A stretch of 64,000 bases of DNA from Bacteroidales bacterium (GTDB lineage: Bacteria; Bacteroidota; Bacteroidia; Bacteroidales; VadinHA17): assembly GCA_025454755.1 (NCBI GenBank), contig JALONV010000001.1, positions 11,950 through 75,949 of the forward strand, in the 5' to 3' direction. Shown piece by piece: positions 702 through 54,204 of this stretch (the stretch's first letter is position 1; every line of letters begins with the position of its first letter). The notes below the pieces were generated by a model. It made no database searches. It was not told the DNA's origin and worked only from the letters and a program-made list of their open reading frames with translations. The translations under genes were made by a program, and so were the position numbers.

Positions 702-1392
702 ATACAATACTGATAAAATTGAGTCAGGTTATTTGACACAGTATGATGAAGAATTTGCTTCTCTTGTTCAGGAAGATATTCGCCTGCTTGAATTAGGGAT
801 ACGTGATGGCGGATCATTATTGCTCTGGAAAGATTATTTCCCTGAATCTAAAATTGCAGGAATCGATATTAAATTGCCTGAGCAGTTTCAGTCTGTTCAG
901 GATATATTTCTTTATGAGGGGAGCCAGGCTGATCCGGTCTTTTTAAGCAATGTTGCATCAGAAGTGGCTCCAGACGGATTTGACATAATAATTGATGATG
1001 CTTCACATATAGGAGAACTGACCAGTAAAGCCTTCTGGCACCTCTTTGATAACCATTTAAAGAAAGGCGGAGTTTATGTCATTGAAGATTGGGGAACTGG
1101 CTATTGGTCAGATTGGCCTGATGGCAAAAGTTTCAGACCGCACAGATCATTTCTAAGAGATTTCCGGTTGAGCCTTATGTCAAAGTTTAATTCACTGCGT
1201 CATATACCTTTTAAAATGCCTGTCAGTTCACATAACTATGGGATGGTTGGATTCATAAAGAGTCTGGTTGATGAGCAGGGTGCCTCGGATCTTTCCAGAA
1301 TGAAAATGAGGGAGAAATCAACACGGAGCTCTAAATTTGCGAAGATGATAATATATCCGCACATTGTTTTTATTCACAAATCCAAACAATAA
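673..1392 (+). CDS. Class I SAM-dependent methyltransferase (CmcI/TylF-like)
   Basis: 239-aa ORF. 'LLELGIRDGGSLLLW' resembles SAM-binding motif I and 'IIIDDASH' a post-I/II acidic motif. It sits in the polysaccharide operon and overlaps the upstream gene by 29 nt. Confidence 0.6.
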   Translation: MRSSKLDLTKYNTDKIESGYLTQYDEEFASLVQEDIRLLELGIRDGGSLLLWKDYFPESKIAGIDIKLPEQFQSVQDIFLYEGSQADPVFLSNVASEVAPDGFDIIIDDASHIGELTSKAFWHLFDNHLKKGGVYVIEDWGTGYWSDWPDGKSFRPHRSFLRDFRLSLMSKFNSLRHIPFKMPVSSHNYGMVGFIKSLVDEQGASDLSRMKMREKSTRSSKFAKMIIYPHIVFIHKSKQ

Positions 1393-22446: not shown

Positions 22447-25400
22447 CACTCTTCTTTTTTGTTTCACTTGATATGAAAGTATAGATTGCGGGAACAACAA
22501 AAAGTGTCAGGAACGTTGCGAAGATCATCCCTCCGACAACTGCAATACCCATTGCAACACGGCTTTGAGCTCCTTCTCCAAAACCAAGTGCAAGTGGTGA
22601 GATTCCAAGTATTGTTGCAAGGCTGGTCATCAGGATTGGACGGAAGCGTGCAGCCGCTGCATATTTAATGGCTTCTAATTTTGACATTCCTGCACTTTTC
22701 CTCTGATTGGCAAATTCAACTATCAGGATTCCATTCTTTGAAACAAGACCGATAAGCATGATCAGTCCGATCTGACTGAAGATGTTCATGGTAATATCGA
22801 AATACCACATGAATGCAAGAGCTCCGGTAAGAGCAAGCGGAACTGTCATCATAACGATAATAGGATCCTTGAAGCTCTCAAACTGGGCCGCAAGCACCAG
22901 GAAGATGAGTACAAGTGCAAGAGAAAATGCAAACATGAGACTTGATGAACTTTCGACGAAATCCTTTGAATCGCCTGCAAGTGCCGTTCTGAAAGAATCG
23001 TCAAGTACCTCCTTTGCGATTCGGTCCATCTCATCGAGTCCTTCACTTATAGTTTTCCCCTTAGCAAGACCTGCAGATATGGTGGCAGCTACGAACCTGT
23101 TATAGCGGTAAAGTTGCGGAGGCGCTGTCTCTTCTGACAGTGTGACGAGATTATCGAACTGTATCATCTCTCCCTGGTCATTTCTTACATATAGCGATTT
23201 CAGGTCAAGCGGTTTGTTGCGATCTTCCCTGGCAAGTTCTCCGAGTATCTGGTACTGTTTGCCATTCATAAAGAAGTATCCGAACCTCTGACCACTGAGT
23301 GCCAATTGAAGCGTTTGACCTATATTTTGTGTGGAAACACCCAGTGTTGTGGCTTTGTCGCGGTTAATATGTATCCTTAATTCGGGTTTTGTGAATTTCA
23401 GGTTTACGTCAGCCATCTGGAGAACATCGCTTTCACTTACTTTTGCCATAAATTCCGGCAGAACTCCTCTCAGTTTCTCGATACTGGTTGCCTGGAGAAC
23501 ATACTGTACAGGCATACCGGCTCTTCTGCCTCCAAAAGTTGACTGCTGCTGAACAAAAGAGCGGGCTTTTGTCTTGGTCCGCAGGTCGATTGCAAGTTGA
23601 TCAGCTATTTCCTGTTGCGTGCGGTATCTCTCGTCAGGTTTGTTTAGCATTATTCTGATCATTGCAAAGCTTCCTCCCCTGATCATTTGTGTGTAACGTA
23701 GTCTTTCTGGCACTTTTTGCTCAACTAATCTTGCTATATCGTTGGAATAGTCCAGTATATATTCATAGGTTGCTCCTTCTGGTGCTGACATGTTGATAGA
23801 TATTTGCGAACGGTCTTCCAGAGGAGCCATCTCAGCAGGTATGGTTTTCCAGAGAAGGACAATCAGAACAAGCGACACTACAAGAATAACGAACGCCCAT
23901 CTTCTGTGATTAAGAAAAGATTCCAGCGCTTTCCTGTACCATTTGTTGAGCCTTTCGAAGAATCTTTCTGTTTTTCTGAAAAACCAGCTGTGCCGTTTTT
24001 CATGCCTGAGAAGTTTCGTCGACACCATGGGTGTTAAGGAGAGCGCCAGAAAAGCCGATATAATAACTGCCCCAGCCATGACGATGCTGAATTCCCTGAA
24101 AAGGCGCCCTGTTATGCCCTGAAGGAAAACGATGGGGAAGAAGACAGAAACAAGGGTGATAGTTGTTGAAATGATTGCAAAATAGATCTCTTTGGAACCT
24201 TTGAGCCCGGCTTCAAGAGGTGGAATTCCTGACTCTACCTTCACATATATATTTTCCATGACAACAATAGCATCATCTACAACAATCCCGATCGCCAGCA
24301 CTATGGCGAGAAGTGTAAGAACATTTATTGTAAATCCCGCTAAATACATAATAAAGAAGGAACCAACCAGCGAAATTGGAATTACAAGAATAGGTATCAG
24401 CGTTGCCCTCCAGCTTCGGAGGAAGAAATAGATTATCACCACCACAAGGCAAAATGCAACATAAATAGTATTCTTTACCTCCTTGATTGAAGACCGGATA
24501 TACTCAGTATTATCATAGTTTATATTGATCCTGACATCATCAGGAAGGTTTTTCCTTATGTATTCAAGACGACGGTATACCTCATCGACAATATCAATAT
24601 GGTTTGAGCCTGGCTGGGGGATCATTGCGATCTGTACCATAGGCACACCGTCCCTCTTTAATATGCCCCTGATATCTTCAGGTCCAAGCTCGGCTCTGCC
24701 TATATCCCTGAACCTCACGACCTGATCACCTGACATTTTTATAATCAGATCGTTAAACTCCTTTGGAGTTGTCATGAGGCCGAGTGTCCTTATCGTTAGT
24801 TGTGTATTGGTGCCCTCAATCGAACCTGATGGAAGCTCCACATTTTCACGGGATATAGCACTTCTTACATCCATGGGGGTGAGACCGTAGCCAGCAAGTT
24901 TTAACGGGTCGATCCATAGTCTCATTGAATATCTCTTCTCTCCAAAAATACTTACCGCACTAACACCTGAAATTGTCTGAAGCTGTTCCTTCAGAGTAAG
25001 ATCGGCAATCTCGGAGAGCTGAAGTAATGATCTCTTACTGCTTTCTACGGTAAGAAATAGTATGGGATTTGCGTCGGCGTCTGCTTTGGCAACAGTTGGC
25101 GGATCACAATCGCGGGGTAATAGTCTTGTAGCCTGTGACACCTTATCCCTTACATCGTTTGCTGCAGTCTCCAGATCGACGGACAACTCGAATTCAACTG
25201 TAATATTACTTCCTCCCTGGCGGCTGACACTGGTAAGTGTACGGACGCCGGGAATACCATTGATATTCTGCTCGAGAGGTTCGGTTATCTGGGTTTCAAT
25301 TACATCAGAATTTGCTCCCGGATATGAGGTACTCACTGTAATGATTGCAGGATCGACACTTGGGAATTCCCTTACACCCAGATAGGTCAATCCGACAAAT

Positions 25401-25474
25401 CCGAATAGCAATATAATAATTGCAAATACTGTAGCCAGTACCGGTCTGTTGATGCTTGTTGATGAAAGACTCAT
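22421..25474 (-). CDS. RND efflux pump permease (AcrB/AcrD/AcrF family)
   Basis: 1017 aa. The N-terminal 'SINRPVLATVFAIIILLFG' and 'VVDDAIVVMENI' are typical HAE1 RND motifs, in a 12-TM architecture. Confidence 0.95.
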   Translation of the reverse strand: MSLSSTSINRPVLATVFAIIILLFGFVGLTYLGVREFPSVDPAIITVSTSYPGANSDVIETQITEPLEQNINGIPGVRTLTSVSRQGGSNITVEFELSVDLETAANDVRDKVSQATRLLPRDCDPPTVAKADADANPILFLTVESSKRSLLQLSEIADLTLKEQLQTISGVSAVSIFGEKRYSMRLWIDPLKLAGYGLTPMDVRSAISRENVELPSGSIEGTNTQLTIRTLGLMTTPKEFNDLIIKMSGDQVVRFRDIGRAELGPEDIRGILKRDGVPMVQIAMIPQPGSNHIDIVDEVYRRLEYIRKNLPDDVRININYDNTEYIRSSIKEVKNTIYVAFCLVVVIIYFFLRSWRATLIPILVIPISLVGSFFIMYLAGFTINVLTLLAIVLAIGIVVDDAIVVMENIYVKVESGIPPLEAGLKGSKEIYFAIISTTITLVSVFFPIVFLQGITGRLFREFSIVMAGAVIISAFLALSLTPMVSTKLLRHEKRHSWFFRKTERFFERLNKWYRKALESFLNHRRWAFVILVVSLVLIVLLWKTIPAEMAPLEDRSQISINMSAPEGATYEYILDYSNDIARLVEQKVPERLRYTQMIRGGSFAMIRIMLNKPDERYRTQQEIADQLAIDLRTKTKARSFVQQQSTFGGRRAGMPVQYVLQATSIEKLRGVLPEFMAKVSESDVLQMADVNLKFTKPELRIHINRDKATTLGVSTQNIGQTLQLALSGQRFGYFFMNGKQYQILGELAREDRNKPLDLKSLYVRNDQGEMIQFDNLVTLSEETAPPQLYRYNRFVAATISAGLAKGKTISEGLDEMDRIAKEVLDDSFRTALAGDSKDFVESSSSLMFAFSLALVLIFLVLAAQFESFKDPIIVMMTVPLALTGALAFMWYFDITMNIFSQIGLIMLIGLVSKNGILIVEFANQRKSAGMSKLEAIKYAAAARFRPILMTSLATILGISPLALGFGEGAQSRVAMGIAVVGGMIFATFLTLFVVPAIYTFISSETKKKSDENEVVAV

Positions 25475-25492
25475 AGATTGGGTATTGGCTGA

Positions 25493-26605
25493 TTATTGTT
25501 TCTTTATCAGGGTGTCGAGCACAACAGGAAGGTTATGACGCAGCTGCAGAATGCCTGATGTGATAAGCGTATCACCAAACTTTAGTCCGTCAGTGATCTG
25601 AACCATCGATTCGGTTCGAAGCCCTGTGCTGATTTTGACAGATGTCGCTTTCCCACTCCGGTATACATACACCATTTCTCCATCCATTTCAGGGGTGATG
25701 GCTTCGCTGGGAATAGAAACAGCATTCTCAATTTTTGACAGTAAAAGCGTGACTGTCGCAAAATGTCCGGATTTCAGTTCTTCGTTCTTATTTGGATAAA
25801 TTGCCCTTATTACAATGGACCTGGTCTCTTCAACGATCCTTGGATCGACTGCATATACAGCAGCCTGGTATAACTCATTGCTGCCTTCAATTGCAAATGT
25901 CACAGGATAACCTATATTGACCTGGTTTGCATAACGCTCAGGGATTGAAAAGTCAAGTTTCAGCGGGCTTACTTTCACCAGCTTTGCTATTTTGGTGGAT
26001 GGATTGGCGTAGCTTCCTTCGCTAAGATAGCGAACGCCAATTGTTCCGTCGAAAGGAGCACGCATCTCTGTTTCAGATATCCTGGCTCTTATAAGATTTA
26101 TATCAGCCTGGATTGTCTGGAGTTCTGTAACTATTTGATCATAACTCTCCTGGCTTATTGCGTCCTTATCAAGAAGGGAACGCTGTCTGAACTCTTTTTC
26201 CCCGACCAGTTTTTTTTGTGCCTGAAGCTTCTGAAGCTGTGCCTGGAGAGGCCTGTCATTTATTTTAGCAAGCAAATCCCCTTTCCTTACACGTTTACCC
26301 TCTGTAAAATTTATTCCTACGATTTTCCCCGATGTTTCAAAAGATAAATCAACTTCTTCATCCGGGCGTGTCGAACCAGTGCTTTTATATAGATCGCTCA
26401 TATTGGCCGGTTCTATAAGAAATCCGCTGACACTCAGAATCTGGCGACCCTGACCGCTACCAGGGCCACGTCCTGCTGAAGGACCGGAAGTGTTTTGTTT
26501 CCCGGAAAGTGATGCTAAAAGCGGTTTTATCTTTGGATAAAAGATTACGACAGCCAGCAGTACAATTATTAAAACCGATATGGTAATCTTCAGACCTTTC
26601 TTCAT
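25493..26605 (-). CDS. RND efflux periplasmic adaptor (MFP/HlyD family)
   Basis: N-terminal anchor, a lipoyl-like 'VRKGDLLAKI', a coiled-coil 'LQAQLQKLQAQKKL', and a beta-barrel C-terminus. First gene of the efflux operon. Confidence 0.9.
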   Translation of the reverse strand: MKKGLKITISVLIIVLLAVVIFYPKIKPLLASLSGKQNTSGPSAGRGPGSGQGRQILSVSGFLIEPANMSDLYKSTGSTRPDEEVDLSFETSGKIVGINFTEGKRVRKGDLLAKINDRPLQAQLQKLQAQKKLVGEKEFRQRSLLDKDAISQESYDQIVTELQTIQADINLIRARISETEMRAPFDGTIGVRYLSEGSYANPSTKIAKLVKVSPLKLDFSIPERYANQVNIGYPVTFAIEGSNELYQAAVYAVDPRIVEETRSIVIRAIYPNKNEELKSGHFATVTLLLSKIENAVSIPSEAITPEMDGEMVYVYRSGKATSVKISTGLRTESMVQITDGLKFGDTLITSGILQLRHNLPVVLDTLIKKQ

Positions 26606-33455: not shown

Positions 33456-34082
33456 GTGGGAGAAAAGCAAAAGAAAGATTTTGGGATTGAATTGCCGCTT
33501 GTGGAGGAGTTCTATTCCATACAGGGAGAAGGATATCACACAGGCAAATCGGCATATTTCATACGCCTCGGAGGCTGTGATGTGGGATGCAGCTGGTGCG
33601 ATTCACGTTTTGCATGGGATCCGGAATTGCATCCGCTGGTAAAAACAGAAATACTTGTAGAACGTGTAGTGAGTTCTGGTGCTGATTCAGTGGTAGTTAC
33701 GGGTGGCGAGCCATTAATGTGGAACCTTGATCTGCTCTGTGAAAGATTAAAAAGGAATAATATTTGCACATTCATTGAGACATCGGGGGCATATCCTGTA
33801 AGCGGTAAATGGGACTGGATATGCCTTTCGCCGAAGAAGAAAATGCCGCCAAAAGGCAAAATATGCCGGATGGCTGATGAACTTAAAATTATAATTGAAG
33901 AGAAAAGTGATCTTGATTGGGCGGAAAAATACAGGAAGCTGGTCAGAAAAAAATGTCATCTCTACCTTCAGCCTGAATGGAGCAGGTTCGAAACCATCAT
34001 CCCTGAAATTGTCACATATGTCAGGAATAACACAGAATGGAGAATTTCCCTGCAGATTCATAAATACATGCATATACCATAG
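33456..34082 (+). CDS. queE: 7-carboxy-7-deazaguanine synthase (radical SAM)
   Basis: 'EEFYSIQGEG...FIRLGGCDVGCSWCDS' is the QueE N-terminal region and CxxxCxxC cluster motif. 208 aa. GTG start. Confidence 0.8.
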   Translation: MGEKQKKDFGIELPLVEEFYSIQGEGYHTGKSAYFIRLGGCDVGCSWCDSRFAWDPELHPLVKTEILVERVVSSGADSVVVTGGEPLMWNLDLLCERLKRNNICTFIETSGAYPVSGKWDWICLSPKKKMPPKGKICRMADELKIIIEEKSDLDWAEKYRKLVRKKCHLYLQPEWSRFETIIPEIVTYVRNNTEWRISLQIHKYMHIP

Positions 34083-36096: not shown

Positions 36097-36933
36097 TCAG
36101 ATTGCGATCATGGAATTGACAAATTTGTTTATGTTGATATCCGAGCCTTCCGCTGTTTCCTTTGCGGGAACTGAAAAGTAGATGCCGGTGCCGGTGAGCC
36201 CGTTGCATTCAATCCAGACAGCTCCGCCCAGAATTGAAATAATTTTCTTGGCCAGGGTAATGTTAATCGCTGAAACTGTATCATTGTATTTGGCAAGCGA
36301 TCCATTCAGATCTTCAGTATGAAGAAATTCTTTGCATTTGAAATAACCCTGGCCGGAGTCCAAAACATAGAAGGTTACTTTTTCGTCCCTGAATTCATAA
36401 CCTATCTTTATATACCCTGAATTTGTATTTTGCAGCGCATTCTGAAACAGGATGCGAATTACCCTGAATACCCTGTCAGAATCAATAATAACATCAGTTG
36501 GATCGGGGCAGCTTTCTGTCACGAGAACAACATCCTGCTGACCTTCTCTTTTGATCATATCCCTGAATTCAGCGAGAAGTTCATCCAGAACATTGGTGAG
36601 TTTGCATATTCTCAGATCAGTTGTTAGTTTGCCCGATTCAATGATTGCAGAATCAAGAAAATTGTCCAGTAATCCTATCAGCTGTTCACACGAAGCAAGT
36701 ATCTGATTGCTGAATTCCTCTCTTTCGGAATCATTGTTTGAGTTCCGGTTCATGAGGTATGAAAACGCCACGATTGCATTCATGTGGGTTCTCACTTCGT
36801 GCGACATCCCGGTCAGGATAGTTGGACAATTTATCATACTTAGATTTGTTGAAACATCGACCTTACGAGTACCGTCCTTATTATCAGCATTATCTGATCC
36901 CAAACCCATCGTATGTAATGTAAGGTTTCTCAT
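36097..36933 (-). CDS. Histidine kinase core (HisKA + HATPase_c) without a recognisable sensor or TM domain
   Basis: H-box 'SHEVRTHMNAI', N-box 'LFQNALQNT', G1 'VLDSGQG', G2 'GLTGTG'. Only about 40 residues precede the H-box. Confidence 0.85.
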   Translation of the reverse strand: MRNLTLHTMGLGSDNADNKDGTRKVDVSTNLSMINCPTILTGMSHEVRTHMNAIVAFSYLMNRNSNNDSEREEFSNQILASCEQLIGLLDNFLDSAIIESGKLTTDLRICKLTNVLDELLAEFRDMIKREGQQDVVLVTESCPDPTDVIIDSDRVFRVIRILFQNALQNTNSGYIKIGYEFRDEKVTFYVLDSGQGYFKCKEFLHTEDLNGSLAKYNDTVSAINITLAKKIISILGGAVWIECNGLTGTGIYFSVPAKETAEGSDININKFVNSMIAI

Positions 36934-36952: not shown

Positions 36953-37699
36953 TTACCTTATTCTTTTCAAAACTTTTCTTGCATCTTTCCTGTATATGCT
37001 TTCCGAATTAATTATCATTTTCAACTGCTCAATAGCACTCTCTTGTTCATCTGTCTGTATAAAACATAAGGCAAGATACCATTGTGCATCTTCAATGTAC
37101 AGGTTGCTGTTATTATCCACGATAGTTGTAAAGGATTGTTTAGCTACCGGGTAGTCTTTTTGTTCAAACTTTGATACGCCATACAACATGGTTGATTCCA
37201 TATCTGCAGGATTGTTCTTCAGTACCTTACTGAAATATGTGGCTGCAGTGCTGTAATCGCGGATGTTATAATAGTCCAGTCCTGTTTTAAAATCATCGTT
37301 GGCTATACTCTCTAAAGATCTTGAAGGAGAAATTCCTTCAAAATGGGTGCTGAACTTCTCGAGAATCTCATTGCCCGACATATTTCTCCCGTTATACAGA
37401 AGAAAGCTGCCAAGAAGTATAAAGACTGAGATAACTGCAGCATATTTTATCGCAGAATGCTTCCCGGGATTCTTTGCAGTTACAGCTTCTGCTCTCTGCC
37501 TTTCTATCTCACGAAGCTTGCTTCTCAGAAGAAGCGATGGATGATTCGAAAGAACCTTGTCTGTTCTGAGCCTCAGCGAAACTTCATCACGAAGTTTCTC
37601 GTTTCCTTCAAGTTCCTTTCGGAACCATTGTTTTTCAGCGTCATTCATCTCACCGGCATTATACCTTTCGATGAAATAGGAAAAATCAATTGTTTTCAT
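36953..37699 (-). CDS. Single-pass membrane protein with a C-terminal (predicted periplasmic) TPR domain; anti-sigma-factor-like architecture
   Basis: A charged N-terminal domain of about 90 aa, the TM helix 'AIKYAAVISVFILLGSFLLY', then TPR-like repeats ('YYNIRDYSTAATYFSKVLKNNP', 'FEQKDYPVAKQSFTTIV', 'AQWYLALCFIQTDEQESAIEQLKMI'). The functional label is inference from architecture. Confidence 0.55.
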   Translation of the reverse strand: MKTIDFSYFIERYNAGEMNDAEKQWFRKELEGNEKLRDEVSLRLRTDKVLSNHPSLLLRSKLREIERQRAEAVTAKNPGKHSAIKYAAVISVFILLGSFLLYNGRNMSGNEILEKFSTHFEGISPSRSLESIANDDFKTGLDYYNIRDYSTAATYFSKVLKNNPADMESTMLYGVSKFEQKDYPVAKQSFTTIVDNNSNLYIEDAQWYLALCFIQTDEQESAIEQLKMIINSESIYRKDARKVLKRIR

Positions 37700-37873: not shown

Positions 37874-37924
37874 TGTTTATTCCTGGTTATCCTGTCCTCA
37901 TGTCCAGGAATATCATATTCTTGC

Positions 37925-38062: not shown

Positions 38063-38220
38063 TTTTTAAAGTTTTTTAATTATAAATACTAAATTCAGGG
38101 TATTTCTTTCAATCGTTTTTCAATAATACATGTAATAACTACCCGATTTGTGACACGAAAAAATCAATTATTTTTAAAATATTTTTTTAATACTTGAATA
38201 TCAATAATATACAGAGGCGT

Positions 38221-38267
38221 TATTTTTGAAACAGAAACGTTAAATTTGATATTTCCGGATATTTTTG
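38221..38267 (+). promoter_or_regulatory. Three TAnnTTTG (-7-box-like) motifs upstream of the TPR-CHAT gene
   Basis: 'TATTTTTG' at 38221-38228, 'TAAATTTG' at 38241-38248 and 'TATTTTTG' at 38260-38267. The Bacteroidetes primary-sigma -7 consensus is TAnnTTTG. The region is AT-rich, so chance matches are plausible. Confidence 0.3.
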
Positions 38268-38299
38268 AGATCTTTCAAGGGGAAAAACAGCAGTTTTTG

Positions 38300-41293
38300 A
38301 TGCTTAAAATGATTTTTATATATGGAATTTCATTCTGGGCTGCCCTGTCCGGAAATGATTCCGATCAGTTCCGGCGGCTGGCGGGCAGGATATCTGACCT
38401 TAATAATGCCGGTAATACAAATGCACTATTAATGATATCTGACAGCCTGCATCGTGCTTTAAACTTGCATCATTCTGACACTGCATCGCTGGCTGAGATC
38501 TATTATTATTCAGGAGTATGTAATCTGCTTGCTCAAAAGCAGGAAAATGCACTTGTTGACTTAAATAACTGTATTTATGCAAAGAGACAAGTTGGCATTA
38601 TGGATGAGAATTATGCCAAAGCTCTTTTTAATGCTGGTTTGTCATGCTATCAGCAGGGAGACTTTATTCAGTCGATCTCGTTTATGAAAGATTACGAGAA
38701 TCTGGCAATATCAAGATATGGTGAATACAGCGGAAACCTCGCTGAGGCCTATTCAGTATTGGCCGGGGCTTCAATAGAGTATATTGACTATGAGGGATTT
38801 GTTGATTATGCATTTAAGGCTCTCAATATAATAGGAAGGAATAAGGATGCCCTTGATGGCAATCAGCTTAGCAATCTTTATAGTACTATAGGTGTCGGCT
38901 ATATCAGGATGGCAGATTTTGCAAAGGCAAAGCTTTATCTTGAAAAGTCCGAATCGTTGATTAAGGAATTCAATATCCCTCATGATGCAAACTATATAAA
39001 CCTTATAAACAGCCTTGCATATACCTATGGAGTGCTCGGTCTTCACGATGAGGAGAAAGCATACTTCAAGAAAGGTATAGATCTCGCTGTTAATAATACT
39101 TCCAGTCTGGCTTTCAATCTAATTCATTCATATGCAATAGATATTGGTAAGGCAGGTAATGTTGACAAAGGAGAAGCACTTCTGTCGGAAGTGGTTAATA
39201 AAGCACAAAACGTATATGGAACTGATTCAAGGTTTTATATGGAGGTGCTTAATAATTATGCTAAATATCTGGTTTTATTCAGATATAAGACCGGGAATGC
39301 ACTGGAAATTTATAAAGCACTCCTTGTATATGTTTCAGAGCATCAGAACGATCTCAGCCTGAGAATGGAGGTTTTATTGGGTTTTGCAAGAGCACTTCAT
39401 GAAACTGGAAATAGTGAGAATGCCCTTAGAATCATACATGACCTGCTCTTTCAATCTACATCGGTTGAGCCGGCTGATCTATTTTCAAATCCTGCACCCG
39501 ATATTGTTCCTGCTGACAGAAGCTCGCTGAGGATTATCCAGTTTAAGCATGAAATCCTTAAGAGCTTATATCAAAAAACGCAGAACAGGGATATTTTAAT
39601 TGCTTCGGCCGAAACATCTGAGCTGATAGTGGCACTGATCGGGGAAATCCGGTTAAACATCTCTGAAGAAGAAAGCAGGCTGATTCTTGGCGACCGCTAC
39701 AGGGATTCATATTTGCTGGCAATACATGATTTTGAACAATGCTACAGAATAACTGGCGAACGCAGATTCCTTGAAAAGGCTTTTGAATTTGCTGAGAGAA
39801 GCAAAGTGGCAGGTTTGCTGGCGGCAACGCGGCAGATGAAAGCCGTGGAATTCCACATCCCTCAGAATCTGGCAGAACGCGAGAAACTGTTTCAGAATGA
39901 GATTGGATTCTATAACTCCAGGATATCTGCGGAGAATGAAAAAGAAAAGCCTGATCAGACTTTGCTTGCTCAATGGACAGAGAACCTTCTTTTAAAAGTT
40001 GCTGCCCGTGATTCTCTTGTACTGACATTTGAAAGAGATTTTCCCGATTATTTCACACTCAAGTATAATACAAAGGTGCCGCTGATGAAGGAAGTATCTT
40101 CAATCACCGGAAGAAGTCATACATATATTAACTATGTAGTTGCAGATTCTGTTTTGTATGTTTTTCTGATAAACAGGAAATATCAGGAATTGATTACAAT
40201 CAAGACCGATTCATCATTCATTAAAAACCTTGCCGATTTCAGGAGTCTGCTCTCTGATCCGTCACAGTCAGAAGACGCCAGAAAGAAATTTGAGAGTTTT
40301 CAGAGTATTGGTTATGACCTCTTCAAAATTCTCATTGAGCCTGTAAAACAATTTCTCATAAGCGATAACTTGCTTATATCCCCCGATAATATCCTCTCAT
40401 ATCTTCCATTTGAAACATTTCTTACTTCAAAATATGCCGGTAATGATATTTTATACCGTAAGCTGAAATACCTGATGAATGATTATAATATATCCTATGC
40501 ATATTCAGCAACATTTATGAGGGAGACAGTAAACAGGGATATACCAGAAAGAAACAGGCTGGTTGCTTTTGCGCCTTCATATCCGCTCTATTTGAATCTC
40601 GACTCCCTTTTAACCGAGCGGCAGGCAGGATATACCATTAAAGATATTCCATTCGCCCGGCAGGAGGCTGAGTATGTTGCCGGTACTACCCACGGCTCAC
40701 TTTATCTGAATTATGAGGCAAACGAATCTGAATACAAATCGGAAGCATCCAAATATAACCTGATCCACCTGGCGATGCATACTGTTGTGAACGATCAGAA
40801 TCCTATGAATTCGGCAATGGTCTTTGCACAGGTAAAGGATTCTGTTAATGATGGTCTGCTATATACTTATGAGGTCTATGGAATACCTCTAAAGGCAAAA
40901 ATGGTAGTTTTGAGTTCCTGCAACACCGGGAGCGGAACACTTTCTTCCGGAGAAGGTATTCTCAGCCTTGCCAGAGGATTTCTTTATTCCGGCAGCGAAT
41001 CTGTGGTAATGTCACTCTGGAAGATAGAAGACAGATCAGGTACGGACATAGTTAAGAAGTTCTACGACAATCTTAGAAAAGGAATGTCGAAGAGCAAGGC
41101 ACTGAGAAAAGCAAGATATGGTTATCTTAAAAAGGCGAGTCAGCTGAAGTCGCACCCGTATTTCTGGTCAACGCTTGTGATCTTTGGCGACAATGCGCCG
41201 GTTTTCTTTCCCTGGAAAATGATTGCTGGTTCCGGACTGGTGATAATTCTCGCTGCGATTTTACTTTTCCTTTATCTCTGGAAACGCAGATAA
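38300..41293 (+). CDS. TPR-repeat / CHAT (caspase-like protease) domain protein with an N-terminal hydrophobic segment and a C-terminal TM anchor
   Basis: The CHAT dyad context is 'LIHLAMHT' (His codon 40778-40780) and 'VVLSSCNTGSG' (Cys codon 40919-40921), followed by 'ARGFLYSGSESVVMSLW'. About 800 aa of TPR-like helical repeats lie upstream. The C-terminus is 'GLVIILAAILLFLYLWKRR'. The track ORF begins at a TTG at 38246; the first ATG is 38300 ('MLKMIFIYGISFWAALSG'). Confidence 0.85.
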   Translation: MLKMIFIYGISFWAALSGNDSDQFRRLAGRISDLNNAGNTNALLMISDSLHRALNLHHSDTASLAEIYYYSGVCNLLAQKQENALVDLNNCIYAKRQVGIMDENYAKALFNAGLSCYQQGDFIQSISFMKDYENLAISRYGEYSGNLAEAYSVLAGASIEYIDYEGFVDYAFKALNIIGRNKDALDGNQLSNLYSTIGVGYIRMADFAKAKLYLEKSESLIKEFNIPHDANYINLINSLAYTYGVLGLHDEEKAYFKKGIDLAVNNTSSLAFNLIHSYAIDIGKAGNVDKGEALLSEVVNKAQNVYGTDSRFYMEVLNNYAKYLVLFRYKTGNALEIYKALLVYVSEHQNDLSLRMEVLLGFARALHETGNSENALRIIHDLLFQSTSVEPADLFSNPAPDIVPADRSSLRIIQFKHEILKSLYQKTQNRDILIASAETSELIVALIGEIRLNISEEESRLILGDRYRDSYLLAIHDFEQCYRITGERRFLEKAFEFAERSKVAGLLAATRQMKAVEFHIPQNLAEREKLFQNEIGFYNSRISAENEKEKPDQTLLAQWTENLLLKVAARDSLVLTFERDFPDYFTLKYNTKVPLMKEVSSITGRSHTYINYVVADSVLYVFLINRKYQELITIKTDSSFIKNLADFRSLLSDPSQSEDARKKFESFQSIGYDLFKILIEPVKQFLISDNLLISPDNILSYLPFETFLTSKYAGNDILYRKLKYLMNDYNISYAYSATFMRETVNRDIPERNRLVAFAPSYPLYLNLDSLLTERQAGYTIKDIPFARQEAEYVAGTTHGSLYLNYEANESEYKSEASKYNLIHLAMHTVVNDQNPMNSAMVFAQVKDSVNDGLLYTYEVYGIPLKAKMVVLSSCNTGSGTLSSGEGILSLARGFLYSGSESVVMSLWKIEDRSGTDIVKKFYDNLRKGMSKSKALRKARYGYLKKASQLKSHPYFWSTLVIFGDNAPVFFPWKMIAGSGLVIILAAILLFLYLWKRR

Positions 41294-41838
41294 TCCTGAT
41301 ATTCAGGATCTTCTTTAATCTTCTCCATCAGGGCTTCCTTGCTGAGATATTTCTTTCGCCTGGCATAATTCTCATTTTTCATTTTCATTTTTTTTGCGAT
41401 TACCTCATAAGAATTTCCTTCTGAAAAAAGTGTCAGTATTGTCTGATACTCCGGAGTAAGTTTTTCATATGCTTTGCTTACAATCCTCTCAAACAATGAT
41501 TCATTTGACTCGTCATTGCTTGTATCATCCGGAATATCTTCACGAATTTCATCTGTTTCCTTTCTCGTCCGGAGATTATTATTCCAGATATTCCTGGCAA
41601 TGCCGAAAAAATAGCCTTTAAGGTCTGTGGTCAAGACCAGGGTATTGTCACAGATCTGATTGTACAGGACAATTATTGAGTCCTGGAATACATCAGAAAC
41701 ATCATCCGTAGAACCGCTGTTTTTGATTACATGGCTTTTTACTGGCTGATAATAATTATCATATAGCCAGTTAAGGGTTTTATCATCCTGATTTTTAATA
41801 CCCTCGATAATGTTTCTATCTGATAATTTTTTAAACAA
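41272..41838 (-). CDS. Sigma-70 family RNA polymerase sigma factor (ECF-like size, regions 2 and 4)
   Basis: 188 aa. The region-2-like stretch is 'DVSDVFQDSIIVLY...YFFGIARNIWNN'. The region-4 HTH is 'LTPEYQTILTLFSEGNSYEVIAKKMKM'. TTG start. The 3' end overlaps the convergent CHAT gene by 22 nt. Confidence 0.8.
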   Translation of the reverse strand: MFKKLSDRNIIEGIKNQDDKTLNWLYDNYYQPVKSHVIKNSGSTDDVSDVFQDSIIVLYNQICDNTLVLTTDLKGYFFGIARNIWNNNLRTRKETDEIREDIPDDTSNDESNESLFERIVSKAYEKLTPEYQTILTLFSEGNSYEVIAKKMKMKNENYARRKKYLSKEALMEKIKEDPEYQDYLRFQR

Positions 41839-41907: not shown

Positions 41908-44094
41908 ATGACATTTCCTTTTGTCAAACAACCTGATGCCATGGATTGCGGTCCTTCATGCCTTAAAATGGTGGCAGCTTATTATAAGAAGAACTTTTCT
42001 CTCGACACAATCCGGAAGAAATGCTATATAACAAAAGAGGGTGTCTCTTTTCTGGGACTTTCCGAAGCTGCCGATTCTCTGGGTTTCCGTACAATTGGTG
42101 TAAAGATCACTTTCGAGATGCTGGCCGAAAGCGTACCACTTCCATTTATTGTTCACTGGCGGCAGAAGCATTTTATTGTTGTATACAAAGTCAAAGATGA
42201 TAAAGTCTGGGCTGCAGATCCCGCATTGGGACTTGTTAAGTTATCCCGTGAGGAATTTCTGAAAAACTGGGCATCTACAATTTTTGAAGAAAAACCTGCA
42301 GGACTTGTGCTTATAATTGAACCTACTCCGGCTCTGCTTGAGCAGGAGGAGGAACAGGAAAAATCACGCGGGTTCAGGTTTCTTTTCAAATACCTGAAAC
42401 TATACGACAAATATGTTATCCAGCTTATTCTTGGCCTTTTTCTGGGAAGCTTAATCCAACTTGTCATTCCATTTCTCACACAAGCAGTTATTGACATTGG
42501 GATAAATTCGAACAACCAGAAACTCATATACCTTATACTCTTTGCACAACTTGCCCTGGTGATCGGCAGGATGTCTGTAGAGTTCATCAGAGGCTGGCTC
42601 CTGCTTTATATCGGGACCAGAGTTAATGTGTCAGTTATCTCAGGATTTCTTCAAAAGCTGATGGCGCTTCCAATTGCATTTTTTGATACCAGGCTGACCG
42701 GAGATATTCTCCAGCGTATTGATGATAATAACAGGATTGAGGAATTTCTTACTTCGGCAAGCCTCAATATGCTGTTCTCAATCTTTAACCTTGTTATTTT
42801 TGGTATAGTCCTGGCTATTTACAGCGCAAAAATATTCCTTTTATTCATGGTCGGAGCATGTCTTTATGTCCTGTGGGTTTCCCTATTCATGAAGAAAAGA
42901 GCAAGACTTGATCAGCAGCGTTTCAGGCAGATGTCTGCTGCCGGAACGAAGATGATTACAATAATTAACGGCATGCAGGAGATCAAGCTTACTCAGAGCG
43001 AAACGAGTATGCGATGGGACTGGGAAAGAGTACAGGCTTCACTTTTCGGGCTTAAAACCAAAGCTCTTGGACTTATCCAGTATCAATCTGCAGGGGCGAC
43101 ATTCATTAATGAGGTTACAAATATTGGAATTACGGTGATCGCCGCAACTTCTGTCCTTAAAGGAGAAATGACTCTGGGCATGATGCTTGCTGTTCAGTTC
43201 ATTATCGGTCAGCTTAATGTTCCACTGAGCCAGATCATAGGATTTTTCCGTGTTTCACAGGACGCAAGGATGAGCCTGGACAGATTGTCGGAAGTGCACG
43301 AAATGCAGGATGAAGAGCCTGAACCTGAAATGAAAGTCACGAAACTGCCCGAACGGAAGAGGATCTTTATTAATAATGTTTCATACCAATATGAAGGTCC
43401 GCGCTCGCCGTTTGTCCTGAAAGATGTTGACCTTGTAATAGAAGAGAACCAAACCACTGCAATCGTAGGGTCAAGTGGAAGCGGTAAAACCACTCTTCTC
43501 AAGCTTCTTCTGGGTTTTTATCAGCCTGTAAGCGGAGAAATACTCGTTGGCAATACCCGGCTCTCAAACCTGAGTTTAAAATTATGGAGAGAAAAGACCG
43601 GAGCTGTAATGCAGGATGGTTTCCTTTTTCCGGAAACAATAGCATACAACATTGCCCCTGGCATTTCTCCAATAAATGAAGAGAGACTGATGATGGCTGT
43701 TGAGATTGCAAATATTAAAGGCTTAATTGAATCGCTGCCACTGGGGTACAATACCAGGATAGGAATAGACGGACATGGATTAAGTGAGGGACAAAAGCAG
43801 AGGCTGCTTATTGCCAGGGCAGTCTACAAGAATCCGGAGATTCTAATATTCGATGAAGCAACAAATTCGCTTGATGCCGGAACTGAAAAGGTAATTGTTG
43901 AAAACCTGTCGGGGTTTTTTACAGGAAAAACAGTCATCATTGTTGCACACAGGCTTAGCACGGTGAAGGATGCAGGAAAAATTCTGGTCATGGATGGAGG
44001 AAGGATTGTGGAAACCGGAACTCATTCTTCACTTATTGACAGCCATGGTGCTTATTATAATCTTGTGAAGAACCAGCTTGAACTTGGATCATAA
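41908..44094 (+). CDS. Peptidase C39 domain-containing ABC transporter (double-glycine peptide-cleaving exporter)
   Basis: C39 catalytic context: 'QPDAMDCGPSCLKMV' (Cys), 'WRQKHFIVVYKV' (His), 'AADPALG' (Asp). Six-TM ABC membrane domain. Walker A 'GSSGSGKTT', signature 'LSEGQKQR', Walker B 'ILIFDEAT'. The ATG at 41908 is preferred over the GTG at 41845. Confidence 0.95.
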   Translation: MTFPFVKQPDAMDCGPSCLKMVAAYYKKNFSLDTIRKKCYITKEGVSFLGLSEAADSLGFRTIGVKITFEMLAESVPLPFIVHWRQKHFIVVYKVKDDKVWAADPALGLVKLSREEFLKNWASTIFEEKPAGLVLIIEPTPALLEQEEEQEKSRGFRFLFKYLKLYDKYVIQLILGLFLGSLIQLVIPFLTQAVIDIGINSNNQKLIYLILFAQLALVIGRMSVEFIRGWLLLYIGTRVNVSVISGFLQKLMALPIAFFDTRLTGDILQRIDDNNRIEEFLTSASLNMLFSIFNLVIFGIVLAIYSAKIFLLFMVGACLYVLWVSLFMKKRARLDQQRFRQMSAAGTKMITIINGMQEIKLTQSETSMRWDWERVQASLFGLKTKALGLIQYQSAGATFINEVTNIGITVIAATSVLKGEMTLGMMLAVQFIIGQLNVPLSQIIGFFRVSQDARMSLDRLSEVHEMQDEEPEPEMKVTKLPERKRIFINNVSYQYEGPRSPFVLKDVDLVIEENQTTAIVGSSGSGKTTLLKLLLGFYQPVSGEILVGNTRLSNLSLKLWREKTGAVMQDGFLFPETIAYNIAPGISPINEERLMMAVEIANIKGLIESLPLGYNTRIGIDGHGLSEGQKQRLLIARAVYKNPEILIFDEATNSLDAGTEKVIVENLSGFFTGKTVIIVAHRLSTVKDAGKILVMDGGRIVETGTHSSLIDSHGAYYNLVKNQLELGS

Positions 44095-51864: not shown

Positions 51865-51974
51865 ATTTCTCGGTTTATCTTCATTATTCCTTAACTAGTT
51901 TTCAACACCTGTTAATATAATCCTTAATGTTATTCTGTACTACATTTATTATTAAATGTATCTTTGTCATGTTT

Positions 51975-52165
51975 TGGTGTTGCAGTGAAATAAAATCACT
52001 GCGATGAAAAGGGAATGCGGTCAGAATCCGCGACAGTACCCGCTGCTGTGATGCCCGATCGTTCTAACGATGATGGTTTTATGATCACCTGCCACTGTTC
52101 CGCGCAGCGGAATGGGAAGGCTTCATAAAACCGGGACAAGTCAGAAGACCTGCCAGAAAACGCCA
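51975..52165 (+). promoter_or_regulatory. Cobalamin (B12) riboswitch aptamer upstream of the TonB-dependent receptor operon
   Basis: The conserved core is 'AAAAGGGAATGCGGTCAGAATCCGCGACAGTACCCGCTGCTGT'. Other conserved elements are 'GCCACTG', 'GGGAAGGC' and the B12 box 'AAGTCAGAAGACCTGCC' (52138-52154). The candidate P1 is 'TGGTGT' (51975-51980) pairing with 'ACGCCA' (52160-52165). Downstream genes are B12-uptake-like. Confidence 0.8.
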
Positions 52166-52269
52166 TATTCTCAGCTTTCGGGAAAAAAAGCGCCGGATCA
52201 CAAACCGATTCCATCCGTTATTTTCCTGCAAATCTTGATAATGGCAATTAACCTGTAAATTGACATTTG

Positions 52270-54204
52270 ATGCTGAAGCTAAGCAGTTTGAAAATCCAAC
52301 CCTCCCGGTTTGTCCTGTTATTGAACATTCTTTTTTCGTTTGCCCCCGGCCTGTTGTCAGGTCAATCTACCCAGCAGGACGATACTCTCAAGATTGAAGA
52401 GGTAGTAATAACACGGAAGCAGATTAGCTCTGAACAACCAGGTTTTAAATTCTATTCAATAGACACAGACCTGTTAAAAAGCTACGATCATTTTTCTCTG
52501 AATGATGTGCTCAGAGATGCTACTCCTTTGTTTATGAAGGAGTATGGAGCCGGTCTTACGGCAACATCATCATTCAGGGGAACCTCGGCAGGGCATACAC
52601 AGGTAACATGGAATGGGATCAACATCAACGATCCTATGCTCGGGCAAACTGATTTTTCACTTATTCCATCGGGAATGATTGATAATGTGATTGTTAGCTT
52701 CGGAGGTGCCTCAATGGATCTTGGAAGCGGGGCTATAGGGGGGATAATCAACCTTGGCAATGAACCTTCTTGGAGGAAGGAAACTGTAATTTTGGTTGCA
52801 CCAGGTTTGGGAAGCTATGGGAGATACAATGGTCTCATAAAAGCAAGTACCGGAAACGAAAAGTTTCAATCCGTAACAAAAGCCTTTTTGAATATCGCAG
52901 AAAATAATTTCATATTTCTTGATACTGAGATGGCCGTGCCGGAATGGAAATATCGTGAGCATAATAAGACCAGTCAGAGAAGCATTATGCAGGAATTCTA
53001 CATGAGAAAATCCGCAGATGTTCTGTCTGCAAGATTCTGGTACCAATCAACATCACGCAATCTTCCAGGCTCAATCTTATACGGCTATTCCGGAGAAAAG
53101 CAATACGATGAATCATTGAGAAGTCTCATAACCTGTGATGCCGTAAGAGGAAAGATGGAGTTCTTTTCTTCGGCTGCATGGATGCTGACAGATATGCGCT
53201 ACTCAAGCTTCTGGGATACGACGGGCTCGGATAATAAAGTAAACACTTTTATTCTTAAGGGTGGGATGAACTTGCTTCTGAGCGGGGCAACAACAGTCAA
53301 AATAGTACTGAATGACGAGCTCAATCTTGTAGAATCAAATTATTACTCCGGCAATATCAATCATAACAATGCATCGCTTACTATTTCAGCTGAGCGAAAA
53401 AAAGGCAAATGGTTCGGAGCAGCACTTCTCCTGAGAGAAACCCTTGATGACAAATCCTTTCTGGTTCCTGACTTTTCAGCAGGATTTGAACTCAGAACAA
53501 TAAGGGGAGAAGAACACTATATTAAATTAAACCTGTCGAGAAACTCTAAAATTCCATCACTGAATGACCGCTTCTGGAATCCGGGAGGTAATCCTGACCT
53601 GAAAAACGAATATGCCTATTCACTTGAGTCAGGTTATAAACTGTCTCACACAATGGGCTCAAGATTTAAAATCAGCTCAGAGCTTAACTATTTCAACAAT
53701 CACATAAGGAATATGATACAATGGTATCCTGAGACAGAGTTTATCTGGGTAGCCGGTAATATAGGCAGTGTAAATACGTCAGGATTTGAGACATCAGCTT
53801 CGCTTGGATATACGGCAAATAAATTTTCTGCCGGCTGGGATGCGGCATATTCCTTTACAAGGGCAAGGGACATTTCCACAGAAGGAACATCAGACAAACA
53901 ACTGGCATACATTCCAAAACACCTGGCGAACAGTACGCTTCAGATTTCTTACAGGAATTTCTACTCAACTCTGGTGACAAACTTCACAAACCGTATATAT
54001 ACATCATCTGATAATACCGGATATATTGACGGTTATGCAGTCAACAGCCTTACAGGAGGGTATAAGCTGAACTTCAGGGGAAATTCTGCTGACATAAGGC
54101 TTAAAGCAGATAATATCTTCAATGCCGCATATCAGACGATTGCATATTATCCGCAGCCCGGCAGATCCTGGCTATTTGTTCTATCATTGAGGTTTAAGGT
54201 GTAG
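52270..54204 (+). CDS. TonB-dependent outer membrane receptor (BtuB-like, riboswitch-controlled)
   Basis: Signal peptide and a plug domain ('LRDATPLFMKEYGAGLTATSSFRGTSAGHTQVTWNGININD'), followed by a long beta-barrel with alternating-residue strands. It follows the cobalamin riboswitch. Confidence 0.85.
   Translation: MLKLSSLKIQPSRFVLLLNILFSFAPGLLSGQSTQQDDTLKIEEVVITRKQISSEQPGFKFYSIDTDLLKSYDHFSLNDVLRDATPLFMKEYGAGLTATSSFRGTSAGHTQVTWNGININDPMLGQTDFSLIPSGMIDNVIVSFGGASMDLGSGAIGGIINLGNEPSWRKETVILVAPGLGSYGRYNGLIKASTGNEKFQSVTKAFLNIAENNFIFLDTEMAVPEWKYREHNKTSQRSIMQEFYMRKSADVLSARFWYQSTSRNLPGSILYGYSGEKQYDESLRSLITCDAVRGKMEFFSSAAWMLTDMRYSSFWDTTGSDNKVNTFILKGGMNLLLSGATTVKIVLNDELNLVESNYYSGNINHNNASLTISAERKKGKWFGAALLLRETLDDKSFLVPDFSAGFELRTIRGEEHYIKLNLSRNSKIPSLNDRFWNPGGNPDLKNEYAYSLESGYKLSHTMGSRFKISSELNYFNNHIRNMIQWYPETEFIWVAGNIGSVNTSGFETSASLGYTANKFSAGWDAAYSFTRARDISTEGTSDKQLAYIPKHLANSTLQISYRNFYSTLVTNFTNRIYTSSDNTGYIDGYAVNSLTGGYKLNFRGNSADIRLKADNIFNAAYQTIAYYPQPGRSWLFVLSLRFKV

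Follow-up and report, generated by a model that had tools for sequence, protein, structure and literature searches.

Can a caspase-like protease and a sigma factor that are encoded side by side, with no CRISPR component in their surroundings, form a regulatory switch of their own? The question is raised by a 64,000-nucleotide stretch of DNA from a Bacteroidales bacterium (GenBank assembly GCA_025454755.1, contig JALONV010000001.1, positions 11,950 to 75,949 of the forward strand; hereafter 'the window'), in which a gene for a large protein that combines tetratricopeptide repeats (TPRs) with a CHAT protease domain directly abuts a sigma factor gene. A preliminary description of this DNA drew a parallel to Craspase, the type III-E CRISPR system composed of Cas7-11 and the TPR-CHAT protease Csx29, with its substrate Csx30 and an RpoE-like sigma factor (PMC10028731), and proposed a stand-alone protease-gated sigma switch. 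We find that the TPR-CHAT gene belongs to a conserved, apparently undescribed set of Bacteroidota genes, which also specifies a sigma factor of the extracytoplasmic function (ECF) type, a single-pass transmembrane protein with a small TPR domain (the TM-TPR protein) and a short peptide with a double-glycine (GG) leader. The linkage of the sigma factor gene to the CHAT gene is real and extends beyond local synteny.

The CHAT domain itself was readily recognized. Pfam family PF12770 matches residues 671–964 of the protein with an E-value of 5.2e-56 (190.6 bits against a cutoff of 24, covering positions 4–289 of the 289-position profile), and a TPR_12 match was also obtained (E = 4e-11). The histidine and cysteine that had been named as the catalytic pair, H827 and C874, lie exactly where they had been placed. 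Together with H823 they are invariant in 113 aligned orthologues of 45–86% identity, and the H827 and C874 positions are also invariant in 51 distant relatives of 26–41% identity. The open reading frame (ORF) begins with an ATG at 38300 and encodes 997 amino acids; a TTG at 38246 would add 18 residues, and most orthologues use a start equivalent to the ATG. In the annotation of several orthologues the N-terminus is extended (…IITDIFEIFxGEKQxxLM…), and like sequence upstream of the window ATG (38246–38299, + strand) is conserved; it may represent a conserved 5' leader rather than coding sequence.

Both ends of the protein carry features that recur throughout the family. The N-terminal hydrophobic stretch and the C-terminal transmembrane helix with its basic tail (KRR in the window protein; ...YFRKRKYS in a typical relative) are found in nearly all full-length orthologues and, among 121 representatives of distant 50% clusters, in 103 and 107 cases, respectively. 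These conserved termini are consistent with a periplasmic location for the bulk of the protein, as had been predicted, and judged from them the protease is probably membrane-anchored and faces the periplasm. A C-terminal sorting signal (PEP-CTERM, GlyGly-CTERM or similar) in place of a simple anchor was considered and rejected, because no NCBIfam family matched.

An AlphaFold2 (AF2) model of the CHAT protein (mean predicted local distance difference test score (pLDDT) 85.3, predicted TM-score 0.80) confines the TPR-like helix pairs to residues 20–383, followed by a distinct long-helix region (407–603) and a beta-containing CHAT region (∼605–965); the earlier figure of about 800 residues of TPR-like repeats was an overestimate. 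When this model was compared with the PDB using Foldseek, the first matches were to DdvA of Myxococcus xanthus (8rw5, 8rot), followed by human and yeast separase and next by the Csx29 chains 7y8t_B, 7x8a_D and 7y85_D (TM-score on target 0.61–0.65), with E-values for these matches of 1e-13 to 1e-11. The structural comparison with Csx29 and separase that had been suggested for this protein thus returned both among the best matches, with DdvA ahead of them. DdvA is a transmembrane anti-sigma factor with a periplasmic TPR-CHAT region, and its cognate ECF sigma factor is DdvS (PMC11506125; PDB 8rot/8rw5). Sequence and family-profile searches of the PDB with the same protein matched TPR proteins alone and no CHAT structure. 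On the predicted fold, the protein falls within the separase/Csx29/DdvA structural class, as a divergent member. The sub-family to which it belongs is very large: when the C-terminal 558 residues were used to query 1.84 billion cluster representatives, 12,492 clusters were obtained at E<=1e-30. Its members are named in public records just as 'CHAT domain-containing protein'.

The adjoining gene encodes a sigma factor, in agreement with the preliminary description, and the factor is of the ECF type. TIGR02937 matches residues 25–166 of its 188 residues (52.5 bits against a cutoff of 42.9), with regions 2 and 4 only; because the Pfam Sigma70_r2 match falls below threshold, we regard it as a divergent ECF member. 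The sigma and CHAT genes are convergent, with 3' ends that overlap by 22 nucleotides, and therefore do not form one operon in the window. A CHAT orthologue was found in 254 of the species-representative genomes scanned, and the best 80 of these 254 loci were examined; all 80 come from uncultured Bacteroidales, Bacteroidia or Bacteroidota metagenome-assembled genomes. Together with four contig loci they form an orthologous set of 84 loci, which retain the sigma gene in 83 cases, a neighboring exporter in 82, the TM-TPR gene in 78, the peptide gene in 78 (by tblastn) and a histidine kinase gene in 70. Unrelated flanking genes are similarly kept in this set (OmpA/PD40 in 74, DUF349 in 65). Because these housekeeping flanks are equally conserved, synteny within the window clade proves no linkage, and an alignment of 51 distant CHAT members was therefore used to scan metagenome contigs.

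That scan returned 80 loci, on all ORFs of which we ran hidden Markov models (HMMs) built from the window clade; the 52 loci whose CHAT HMM score was below 800 bits are referred to as distant (individual loci are numbered with the prefix L). Both a sigma homologue and a TM-TPR homologue lie beside CHAT in 26 of the 52, usually as an adjacent sigma>TM-TPR pair: 18 have the order CHAT> <TM-TPR <sigma, four have <TM-TPR <sigma CHAT>, and in four the two partners are split as they are in the window. Ten further loci have one partner only, several of them on contigs cut near CHAT, and 16 have neither. Within 3 kb of CHAT we counted 34 sigma-family matches, compared with 0 in an equal amount (196 kb) of farther flank. 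Pairwise identities of the CHAT and sigma proteins across 46 loci are strongly correlated (r=0.94; 0.77 among between-clade pairs; Mantel p∼0.001), a correlation to which shared species phylogeny contributes. The arrangement is operon-like or translationally coupled in L166, L098 and L099, and in the latter two the CHAT stop codon overlaps the start of the sigma gene. In the complete genome of Aequorivita marisscotiae (CP122379.1, at about 624–637 kb), sigma, TPR protein and CHAT genes follow one another in that order on a single strand. The linkage to sigma factors that had been anticipated in other genomes is therefore found.

The same data bear on the plainest alternative, namely that CHAT and sigma genes are adjacent through inherited gene order, without functional coupling. 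The retention of the OmpA/PD40 and DUF349 flanks about as often as the module genes in the window clade, and the existence of CHAT homologues that stand alone, are what would be expected in that case. The linkage, however, survives at 24–40% protein identity through convergent, divergent, co-directional and overlapping layouts, and sigma genes are enriched locally (34 versus 0). We consider inherited order without coupling to be highly improbable, and return to a functional association of the two proteins.

The anti-sigma-like membrane protein that had been noted nearby is 248 residues long. Its AF2 model (pLDDT 81) has an architecture that fits an anti-sigma factor, with four helices at residues 7–72, a transmembrane helix at residues 85–103 and a compact TPR domain at residues 129–247. 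In the linker, pLDDT falls below 50 at residues 124–127, a segment that spans R127 of an invariant R127-S128 pair. Foldseek related the TPR domain to periplasmic YbgF and to three-repeat TPR domains solved with short peptides; the result is dominated by this domain and is uninformative on the N-terminal domain. The protein also carries the motif IExYLxGEMxxxExxxFxKELxxNxxL, at which distant TM-TPR homologues gave zf-HC2 matches that fall slightly short of the cutoff of 22.2 bits (21.6 and 19.5 bits; E=2e-4 and 1e-3). A sigma gene followed on the same strand by the gene of a single-pass membrane protein is the canonical layout of a sigma factor and its anti-sigma factor. In 22 distant loci the gene that comes immediately after sigma, on the same strand, encodes a TM-TPR homologue, and L166 and L167 show this order as well. 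By its architecture and the gene position of its family, an anti-sigma role for the 248-residue protein is likely.

The preliminary description had overlooked a further gene, located beside the CHAT gene and on the opposite strand. Its translation consists of a textbook double-glycine leader, MKTLNFKNTTELFAAFALSMEEMIKVRGG, followed by a 16-residue, proline-rich predicted core, NMDEPIVKPPIPPVKI. The leader fits the pattern LSxxELxxIxGG (ALSMEEMIKVRGG), and a C39-peptidase ABC transporter is encoded in the immediate neighborhood. A peptide ORF of 41–50 residues occupies the equivalent place in 78 of the 84 orthologous loci, with a leader consensus of MKTLNFxxxxDIFxEFALSNEEMIxVRGG (LSxxEMxxVRGG type) and a core that has an acidic or Gly-rich head and then a tail of the form PIxKPxxPPxKI (xEPIxKPxxPPxKI); leader and core are conserved in about 79 related loci. 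When the strict leader pattern was applied to all small ORFs of the 52 distant loci (∼0.47 Mb of contig), it gave 11 matches, and all 11 lie immediately upstream of CHAT; inspection added about eight GG-leader genes, several of them co-directional with CHAT. A GG-leader gene thus stands immediately upstream of CHAT in about 19 of the 34 distant loci with enough upstream sequence. The cores of these distant peptides (…GGSEPIIIIPPGV, …ASVIIIPKFKV, …EVVISIPKPPKV) resemble that of the window.

The exporter has the domain content expected of a GG-peptide transporter (Pfam C39, E=7.7e-37, with ABC_membrane and ABC_tran), resembles TIGR03796/TIGR01193 and is 72–85% identical across the orthologous loci. 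C39 exporters are also found near distant modules (L090, L107, L119 and L127). Because GG-leader genes recur just upstream of CHAT, and C39 exporters lie near distant modules, the peptide appears to be a component of the module; the adjacent exporter would process it. The compartments would also be coherent, with the peptide exported and both the bulk of the CHAT protein and the TPR domain of the TM-TPR protein predicted to be periplasmic. An inverted repeat, TCCTG...CAGGA, is present at 37890–37909, ∼15 nucleotides past the stop of the peptide gene (− strand), and is conserved in related loci; it is possibly an attenuator between the peptide and anti-sigma-like genes.

These components could be combined into a 'split DdvA': from the periplasm, the CHAT protease would attack the TPR anti-sigma factor in trans and thereby release the ECF sigma factor, possibly on a peptide cue. 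We favor this scheme tentatively, with somewhat less than even confidence. Its core parts would be the ECF sigma factor; a membrane protein that spans the bilayer once, with an anti-sigma-like helical N-terminus in the cytoplasm and a small TPR domain in the periplasm; a TPR-CHAT cysteine protease that is exported by a signal sequence and held in the inner membrane by its C-terminal helix, its TPR and caspase-like domains being periplasmic; and a GG-leader peptide that is cut and exported by the neighboring C39-peptidase ABC transporter. In the resting state the sigma factor would be sequestered by the anti-sigma-like protein. A cue in the periplasm, for which the exported proline-rich peptide bound to one of the two TPR domains is the most economical candidate, would activate the CHAT protease, which would cut the flexible juxtamembrane linker of the anti-sigma-like protein with its invariant Arg-Ser. 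Loss of the TPR domain would then license intramembrane proteolysis, freeing the sigma factor for a presumed downstream regulon. The stand-alone switch that had been proposed is partly supported: none of the refuting conditions examined, on topology, dyad conservation and sigma linkage, applied, whereas the peptide gene and exporter had been missed. A wider reading, in which the module mediates widespread, hitherto unrecognized peptide-based cell-cell (or self) signaling in Bacteroidota through an exported GG peptide, a periplasmic TPR receptor, CHAT site-1 cleavage and ECF release, seems to us doubtful at present. Were it true, an ECF switch and a caspase-fold protease would together make up a quorum-sensing-like circuit, in place of a kinase and a response regulator.

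The position of the peptide gene also invites a different account, in which the exported peptide is the main substrate or ligand of the CHAT protease, being trimmed, matured or destroyed by it, or inhibiting it as securin does separase; in that case the product would be sensed by the sigma/anti-sigma pair, or the pair would merely be co-regulated. No neighbor of the CHAT 5' end is closer or more consistent than the GG-leader gene, which is co-directional with CHAT and operon-like in several clades. The acidic/Gly-rich head and Ile/Val/Pro-rich tail shared by the cores would suit a second cleavage. Known proteases of the CHAT family are, moreover, controlled by a bound pseudosubstrate or substrate, as in separase-securin and Csx29-Csx30 (PMC11506125, PMC10028731). 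This account nevertheless leaves the co-occurrence and co-variation of the sigma factor and the anti-sigma-domain (ASD)-like TM-TPR protein with CHAT unexplained, and about 15 of the 34 testable distant loci have no detectable peptide gene, several of which keep sigma and anti-sigma. We regard it as unlikely, and continue with the anti-sigma factor as the proposed target of the protease.

Several observations weigh against that proposal. At the level of gene content, the unrelated flanks of the window clade are as persistent as the module, and about five of the 16 distant CHAT loci that have neither partner are flanked by more than 6 kb on both sides; a CHAT homologue of Aquimarina muelleri stands alone between tRNA synthetase genes. 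Sigma binding by the 248-residue protein is inferred, from a fit of architecture and gene position. The window protein itself has no zf-HC2 match, a PDB search with a profile of the TM-TPR family N-terminus matched no anti-sigma factor, and public annotation of its relatives reads plain 'tetratricopeptide repeat protein'. In the window clade the sigma and anti-sigma-like genes are not adjacent, the CHAT gene lying between them in the window. The HlyD adaptor encoded after the exporter is truncated in the window: residues ∼75–316 (lipoyl domain and coiled-coil hairpin) are cleanly deleted in frame, leaving 189 residues of a protein that has 429 in most relatives. This deletion may affect the fate of the peptide, namely passage through the outer membrane or retention in the periplasm. 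Finally, CHAT cleavage is still at the stage of a proposal in DdvA itself, where mutation of the dyad gave no phenotype in the conditions that were used (PMC11506125).

A further point of this kind comes from L167 (2100–10429), which encodes two paralogous ASD-TM-TPR proteins. One, of 242 residues, follows the sigma gene; the other, of 249 residues, follows a GG peptide gene and precedes a HisKA protein (a kinase homologue beside the peptide-linked TM-TPR gene) and two LytTR-only proteins. With 95 bits against the peptide/kinase-linked paralogue and 78 bits against the sigma-linked one, the window protein is slightly nearer to the former, and it could therefore instead partner the soluble histidine kinase encoded next to it. 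The window clade has one TM-TPR copy only, which would be either the sole anti-sigma factor or mainly the partner of the sensor-less kinase.

Some side observations concern related proteins. The layout of L167, where a second, ordinary ECF sigma factor is also present with a small transmembrane protein alongside, suggests a kinase/LytTR branch of the module in some clades; tblastn found no LytTR regulators like those of L167 in the window. Nif11 domains act as leaders of GG-cleaved peptides, and the best PDB match of the TM-TPR N-terminal profile was a Nif11-domain protein (9zn4_A, E=0.0099); this match was treated as noise and is probably a coincidental helical motif. The HlyD-type gene of L001 is similarly short to that of the window.

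Between the divergently oriented peptide and CHAT genes lies a putative control region with two strongly conserved blocks, TTCAGGGTAT at 38094–38103 (+) and TGTCACAAA-N13-ACATGT at 38128–38155 (−), the second of which occurs once in the window against 0 expected; both are possibly operator or promoter elements. Distant clades have a bipartite motif, GGTwAC-N17-wATwwAAC, with a fixed 17-nucleotide spacer, ∼75 nucleotides upstream of their peptide ORFs (L105, L106, L109, L111, L112, L119, L127 and L144; L086, L091, L096, L098, L099, L108 and L125), and some loci contain a second, divergent copy. When a matrix derived from one subclade was applied to seven loci of another, it ranked the expected site 1st–5th among 6,500–37,000 positions in five of them. 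We take this motif to be unlike the −33/−7 elements of Bacteroidota housekeeping promoters and to contain an ECF-like, AAC-containing −35 element. In the window clade, the matrix fails to pinpoint the intergenic region: among 75 loci its top match fell there in two, one of them with the orientation that was predicted; with this matrix from distant clades no sigma-dependent promoter can be assigned in the window, which is another point against the proposed switch.

The same motif could be explained if CHAT were an output of the sigma regulon, an envelope protease made once another signal activates the sigma factor. Effector genes often come after the sigma and anti-sigma genes in ECF operons, an order to which sigma>TPR>CHAT in L166 may be compared, and the promoter-like, non-housekeeping motif stands upstream of peptide-CHAT units in distant clades. 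In the commonest arrangement, however, CHAT is convergent with the sigma operon, the motif is not recovered in the window clade, and a regulatory role is favored by the large, sensor-like TPR region and by the precedent of DdvA. An output role for CHAT is in our view quite improbable, and a protease acting upstream of the sigma factor remains the reading that we prefer.

We also asked how much of the Craspase parallel holds. The window has no tandem repeats and no CRISPR RNA family, in agreement with the preliminary description, and hence no CRISPR array; Cas7-11 (gRAMP) is likewise missing from it, the only other ORF longer than 1000 residues being an AcrB pump, as are Csx30 and Csx31. For the window sigma factor, the score with NF041236, the RpoE-like model of type III-E, is 16.3 bits, below the cutoff of 100. 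The fold likeness and the sigma linkage therefore stand, whereas Cas7-11, the sigma family and the predicted compartment all differ; the window module shows none of the Craspase membership features that were tested and is not a Craspase.

Given the resemblance to DdvA, the module might alternatively be an anti-phage or stress sentinel like DdvA-DdvS, in which the TPR-CHAT protein senses an invader-derived protein and the sigma factor induces defense genes. DdvA is the best structural match and the only characterized periplasmic TPR-CHAT protein (PMC11506125). PADLOC models, on the other hand, left the module proteins unmatched apart from generic ATPase matches on the exporter, and the window contains no CRISPR, CBASS (cyclic oligonucleotide-based anti-phage signaling system) or other known defense gene; the module is surrounded by housekeeping genes, and synteny at the locus is stable in the best 80 of the 254 genomes. 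We judge the chance of a sentinel function to be small. A search of the full-text literature gave no account of a Bacteroidota module of CHAT, ECF, anti-sigma and GG-peptide genes, which falls short of proving its absence, and CHAT is unmentioned in the main text of the ECF reclassification paper.

A periplasmic protease that releases an ECF sigma factor would have implications beyond this locus. CHAT proteins are among the most abundant uncharacterized caspase-fold proteins in bacteria, and if the proposed scheme is true, a large part of the family would have a function as site-1 proteases of ECF sigma switches. A DdvA-type mechanism would then reach beyond Myxococcota, in a two-polypeptide form common in Bacteroidota. 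We know of no ribosomal-peptide signaling route in Bacteroidota, although no search was aimed at one, and the module would then be a first candidate. The hypothesis lends itself to direct tests: the peptide is short and apparently carries no modification, it is known which residues form the dyad, and a carrier is in culture (Aequorivita marisscotiae).

Table 1. Coordinates of the module features in the window, with the basis of each assignment (aa, amino acids)
Feature	Position	Strand	Basis or remark
TPR-CHAT protease, 997 aa	38300..41293	+	ORF list, Pfam, orthologue alignment, AF2 model
Signal-like N-terminus, aa 1–17	38300–38350	+	
TPR-like repeats, aa 20–383		+	
Long-helix region, aa 407–603		+	
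CHAT/caspase-like region, aa ∼605–965		+	Pfam 671–964
Catalytic His827 codon (LIHLAMHT)	40778..40780	+	invariant in close and distant alignments
Catalytic Cys874 codon (VVLSSCNTGSG)	40919..40921	+	invariant in close and distant alignments
C-terminal transmembrane helix, aa ∼972–994, then KRR	41213–41281	+	
ECF-type sigma-70 family sigma factor, 188 aa, TTG start	41272..41838	−	TIGR02937; homologues adjoin CHAT in distant loci
Anti-sigma-like protein (TM-TPR), 248 aa	36953..37699	−	AF2 model; homologues directly downstream of sigma in distant loci
Four N-terminal helices, aa 7–72		−	
Transmembrane helix, aa 85–103		−	
Linker with R127-S128	37316–37321	−	
Predicted periplasmic 3-TPR domain, aa 129–247		−	
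Double-glycine-leader peptide gene, 45 aa	37925..38062	−	leader MKTLNFKNTTELFAAFALSMEEMIKVRGG; predicted exported core NMDEPIVKPPIPPVKI
Soluble histidine-kinase core (HisKA and HATPase_c), without transmembrane or sensor domain	36097..36933	−	Pfam; 19 nucleotides downstream of anti-sigma-like gene
Peptidase-C39 ABC exporter (peptidase-containing ABC transporter, PCAT)	41908..44094	+	divergent from sigma gene; mechanical ORF start 41845
HlyD-family adaptor with in-frame internal deletion, 189 aa	44104..44673	+	profile match; comparison with relatives
Putative control region between divergent peptide and CHAT genes	38063..38299		conserved blocks TTCAGGGTAT, TGTCACAAA-N13-ACATGT

The wider window is ordinary chromosome, with genes for CTP synthase, YidC, a resistance-nodulation-division (RND) pump and a TonB receptor with a cobalamin riboswitch. 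The riboswitch (99.6 bits; 51958–52171, + strand) lies upstream of the TonB-dependent receptor gene (52267–54204) and is unexceptional. The RND efflux operon at 21124–26605 (− strand) is complete, encoding an OEP outer-membrane factor, an AcrB-type pump and an HlyD-type adaptor; it is possible in principle that it supplies an outer-membrane channel for the module.

Three groups of known systems can be compared with the module, in addition to DdvA-DdvS. Craspase also links a TPR-CHAT protein genetically to an ECF-like sigma factor and has a similar fold (the TM-scores on target given above), and the proposed logic of sigma release through proteolysis of a binding partner would be shared; Craspase, however, is cytoplasmic, RNA-guided and activated by Cas7-11, whereas the window CHAT protein is predicted to be periplasmic and has no Cas7-11, CRISPR array or Csx30/31. 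The regulated proteolysis of anti-sigma factors by RseA/DegS/RseP, RsiW/PrsW and RsiV would have in common with our proposal a single-pass anti-sigma factor with an extracytoplasmic domain, an envelope-responsive site-1 protease and release of the sigma factor. The site-1 enzyme is a serine or metalloprotease in those systems, whereas here the role would fall to a CHAT cysteine protease of caspase fold that has a large TPR sensor; the cue in the module may be a self-made exported peptide, and the module contains no site-2 protease.

The GG pheromone and bacteriocin systems ComC/ComAB and BlpC/BlpAB, and the GG-leader ribosomally synthesized and post-translationally modified peptides (RiPPs) of Bacteroidota (TIGR04149), share with the module a leader of the LSxxELxxIxGG type, a C39-ABC exporter and an HlyD-type adaptor, as well as a nearby histidine kinase and, in the relative L167, LytTR proteins. 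The sensors that adjoin the peptide here are an ECF sigma factor, a TPR anti-sigma-like protein and a CHAT protein, rather than a membrane kinase and a response regulator. The window peptide also differs from TIGR04149 in its score (12 bits against a cutoff of 25) and in that the module has no modification enzyme. There is just one radical-SAM gene in the vicinity (33456..34082), which is part of the conserved flank and not of the module.

DdvA-DdvS is a closer precedent than Craspase. It shares with the window module a periplasmic TPR-CHAT region (predicted in our case) with an intact His-Cys dyad, a cognate ECF sigma factor encoded alongside and the top Foldseek match, and in both a flexible juxtamembrane linker is the proposed target of cleavage. 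In DdvA a zinc-binding anti-sigma domain (ZAS), a transmembrane helix and TPR-CHAT are fused in one chain, which would cut itself in trans within a dimer, whereas the window CHAT protein begins with a signal-like sequence, is anchored at its C-terminus and lacks an anti-sigma domain. The anti-sigma-like part is found on a second protein, which has a small TPR domain of its own. DdvA gave no sequence-level match to the window CHAT protein in sequence and profile searches of the PDB, and the window has no defense island but does have a GG-leader peptide and an exporter. DdvA-like fusions have been reported in Myxococcota and one Comamonas only, whereas the module described here is found in Bacteroidota.

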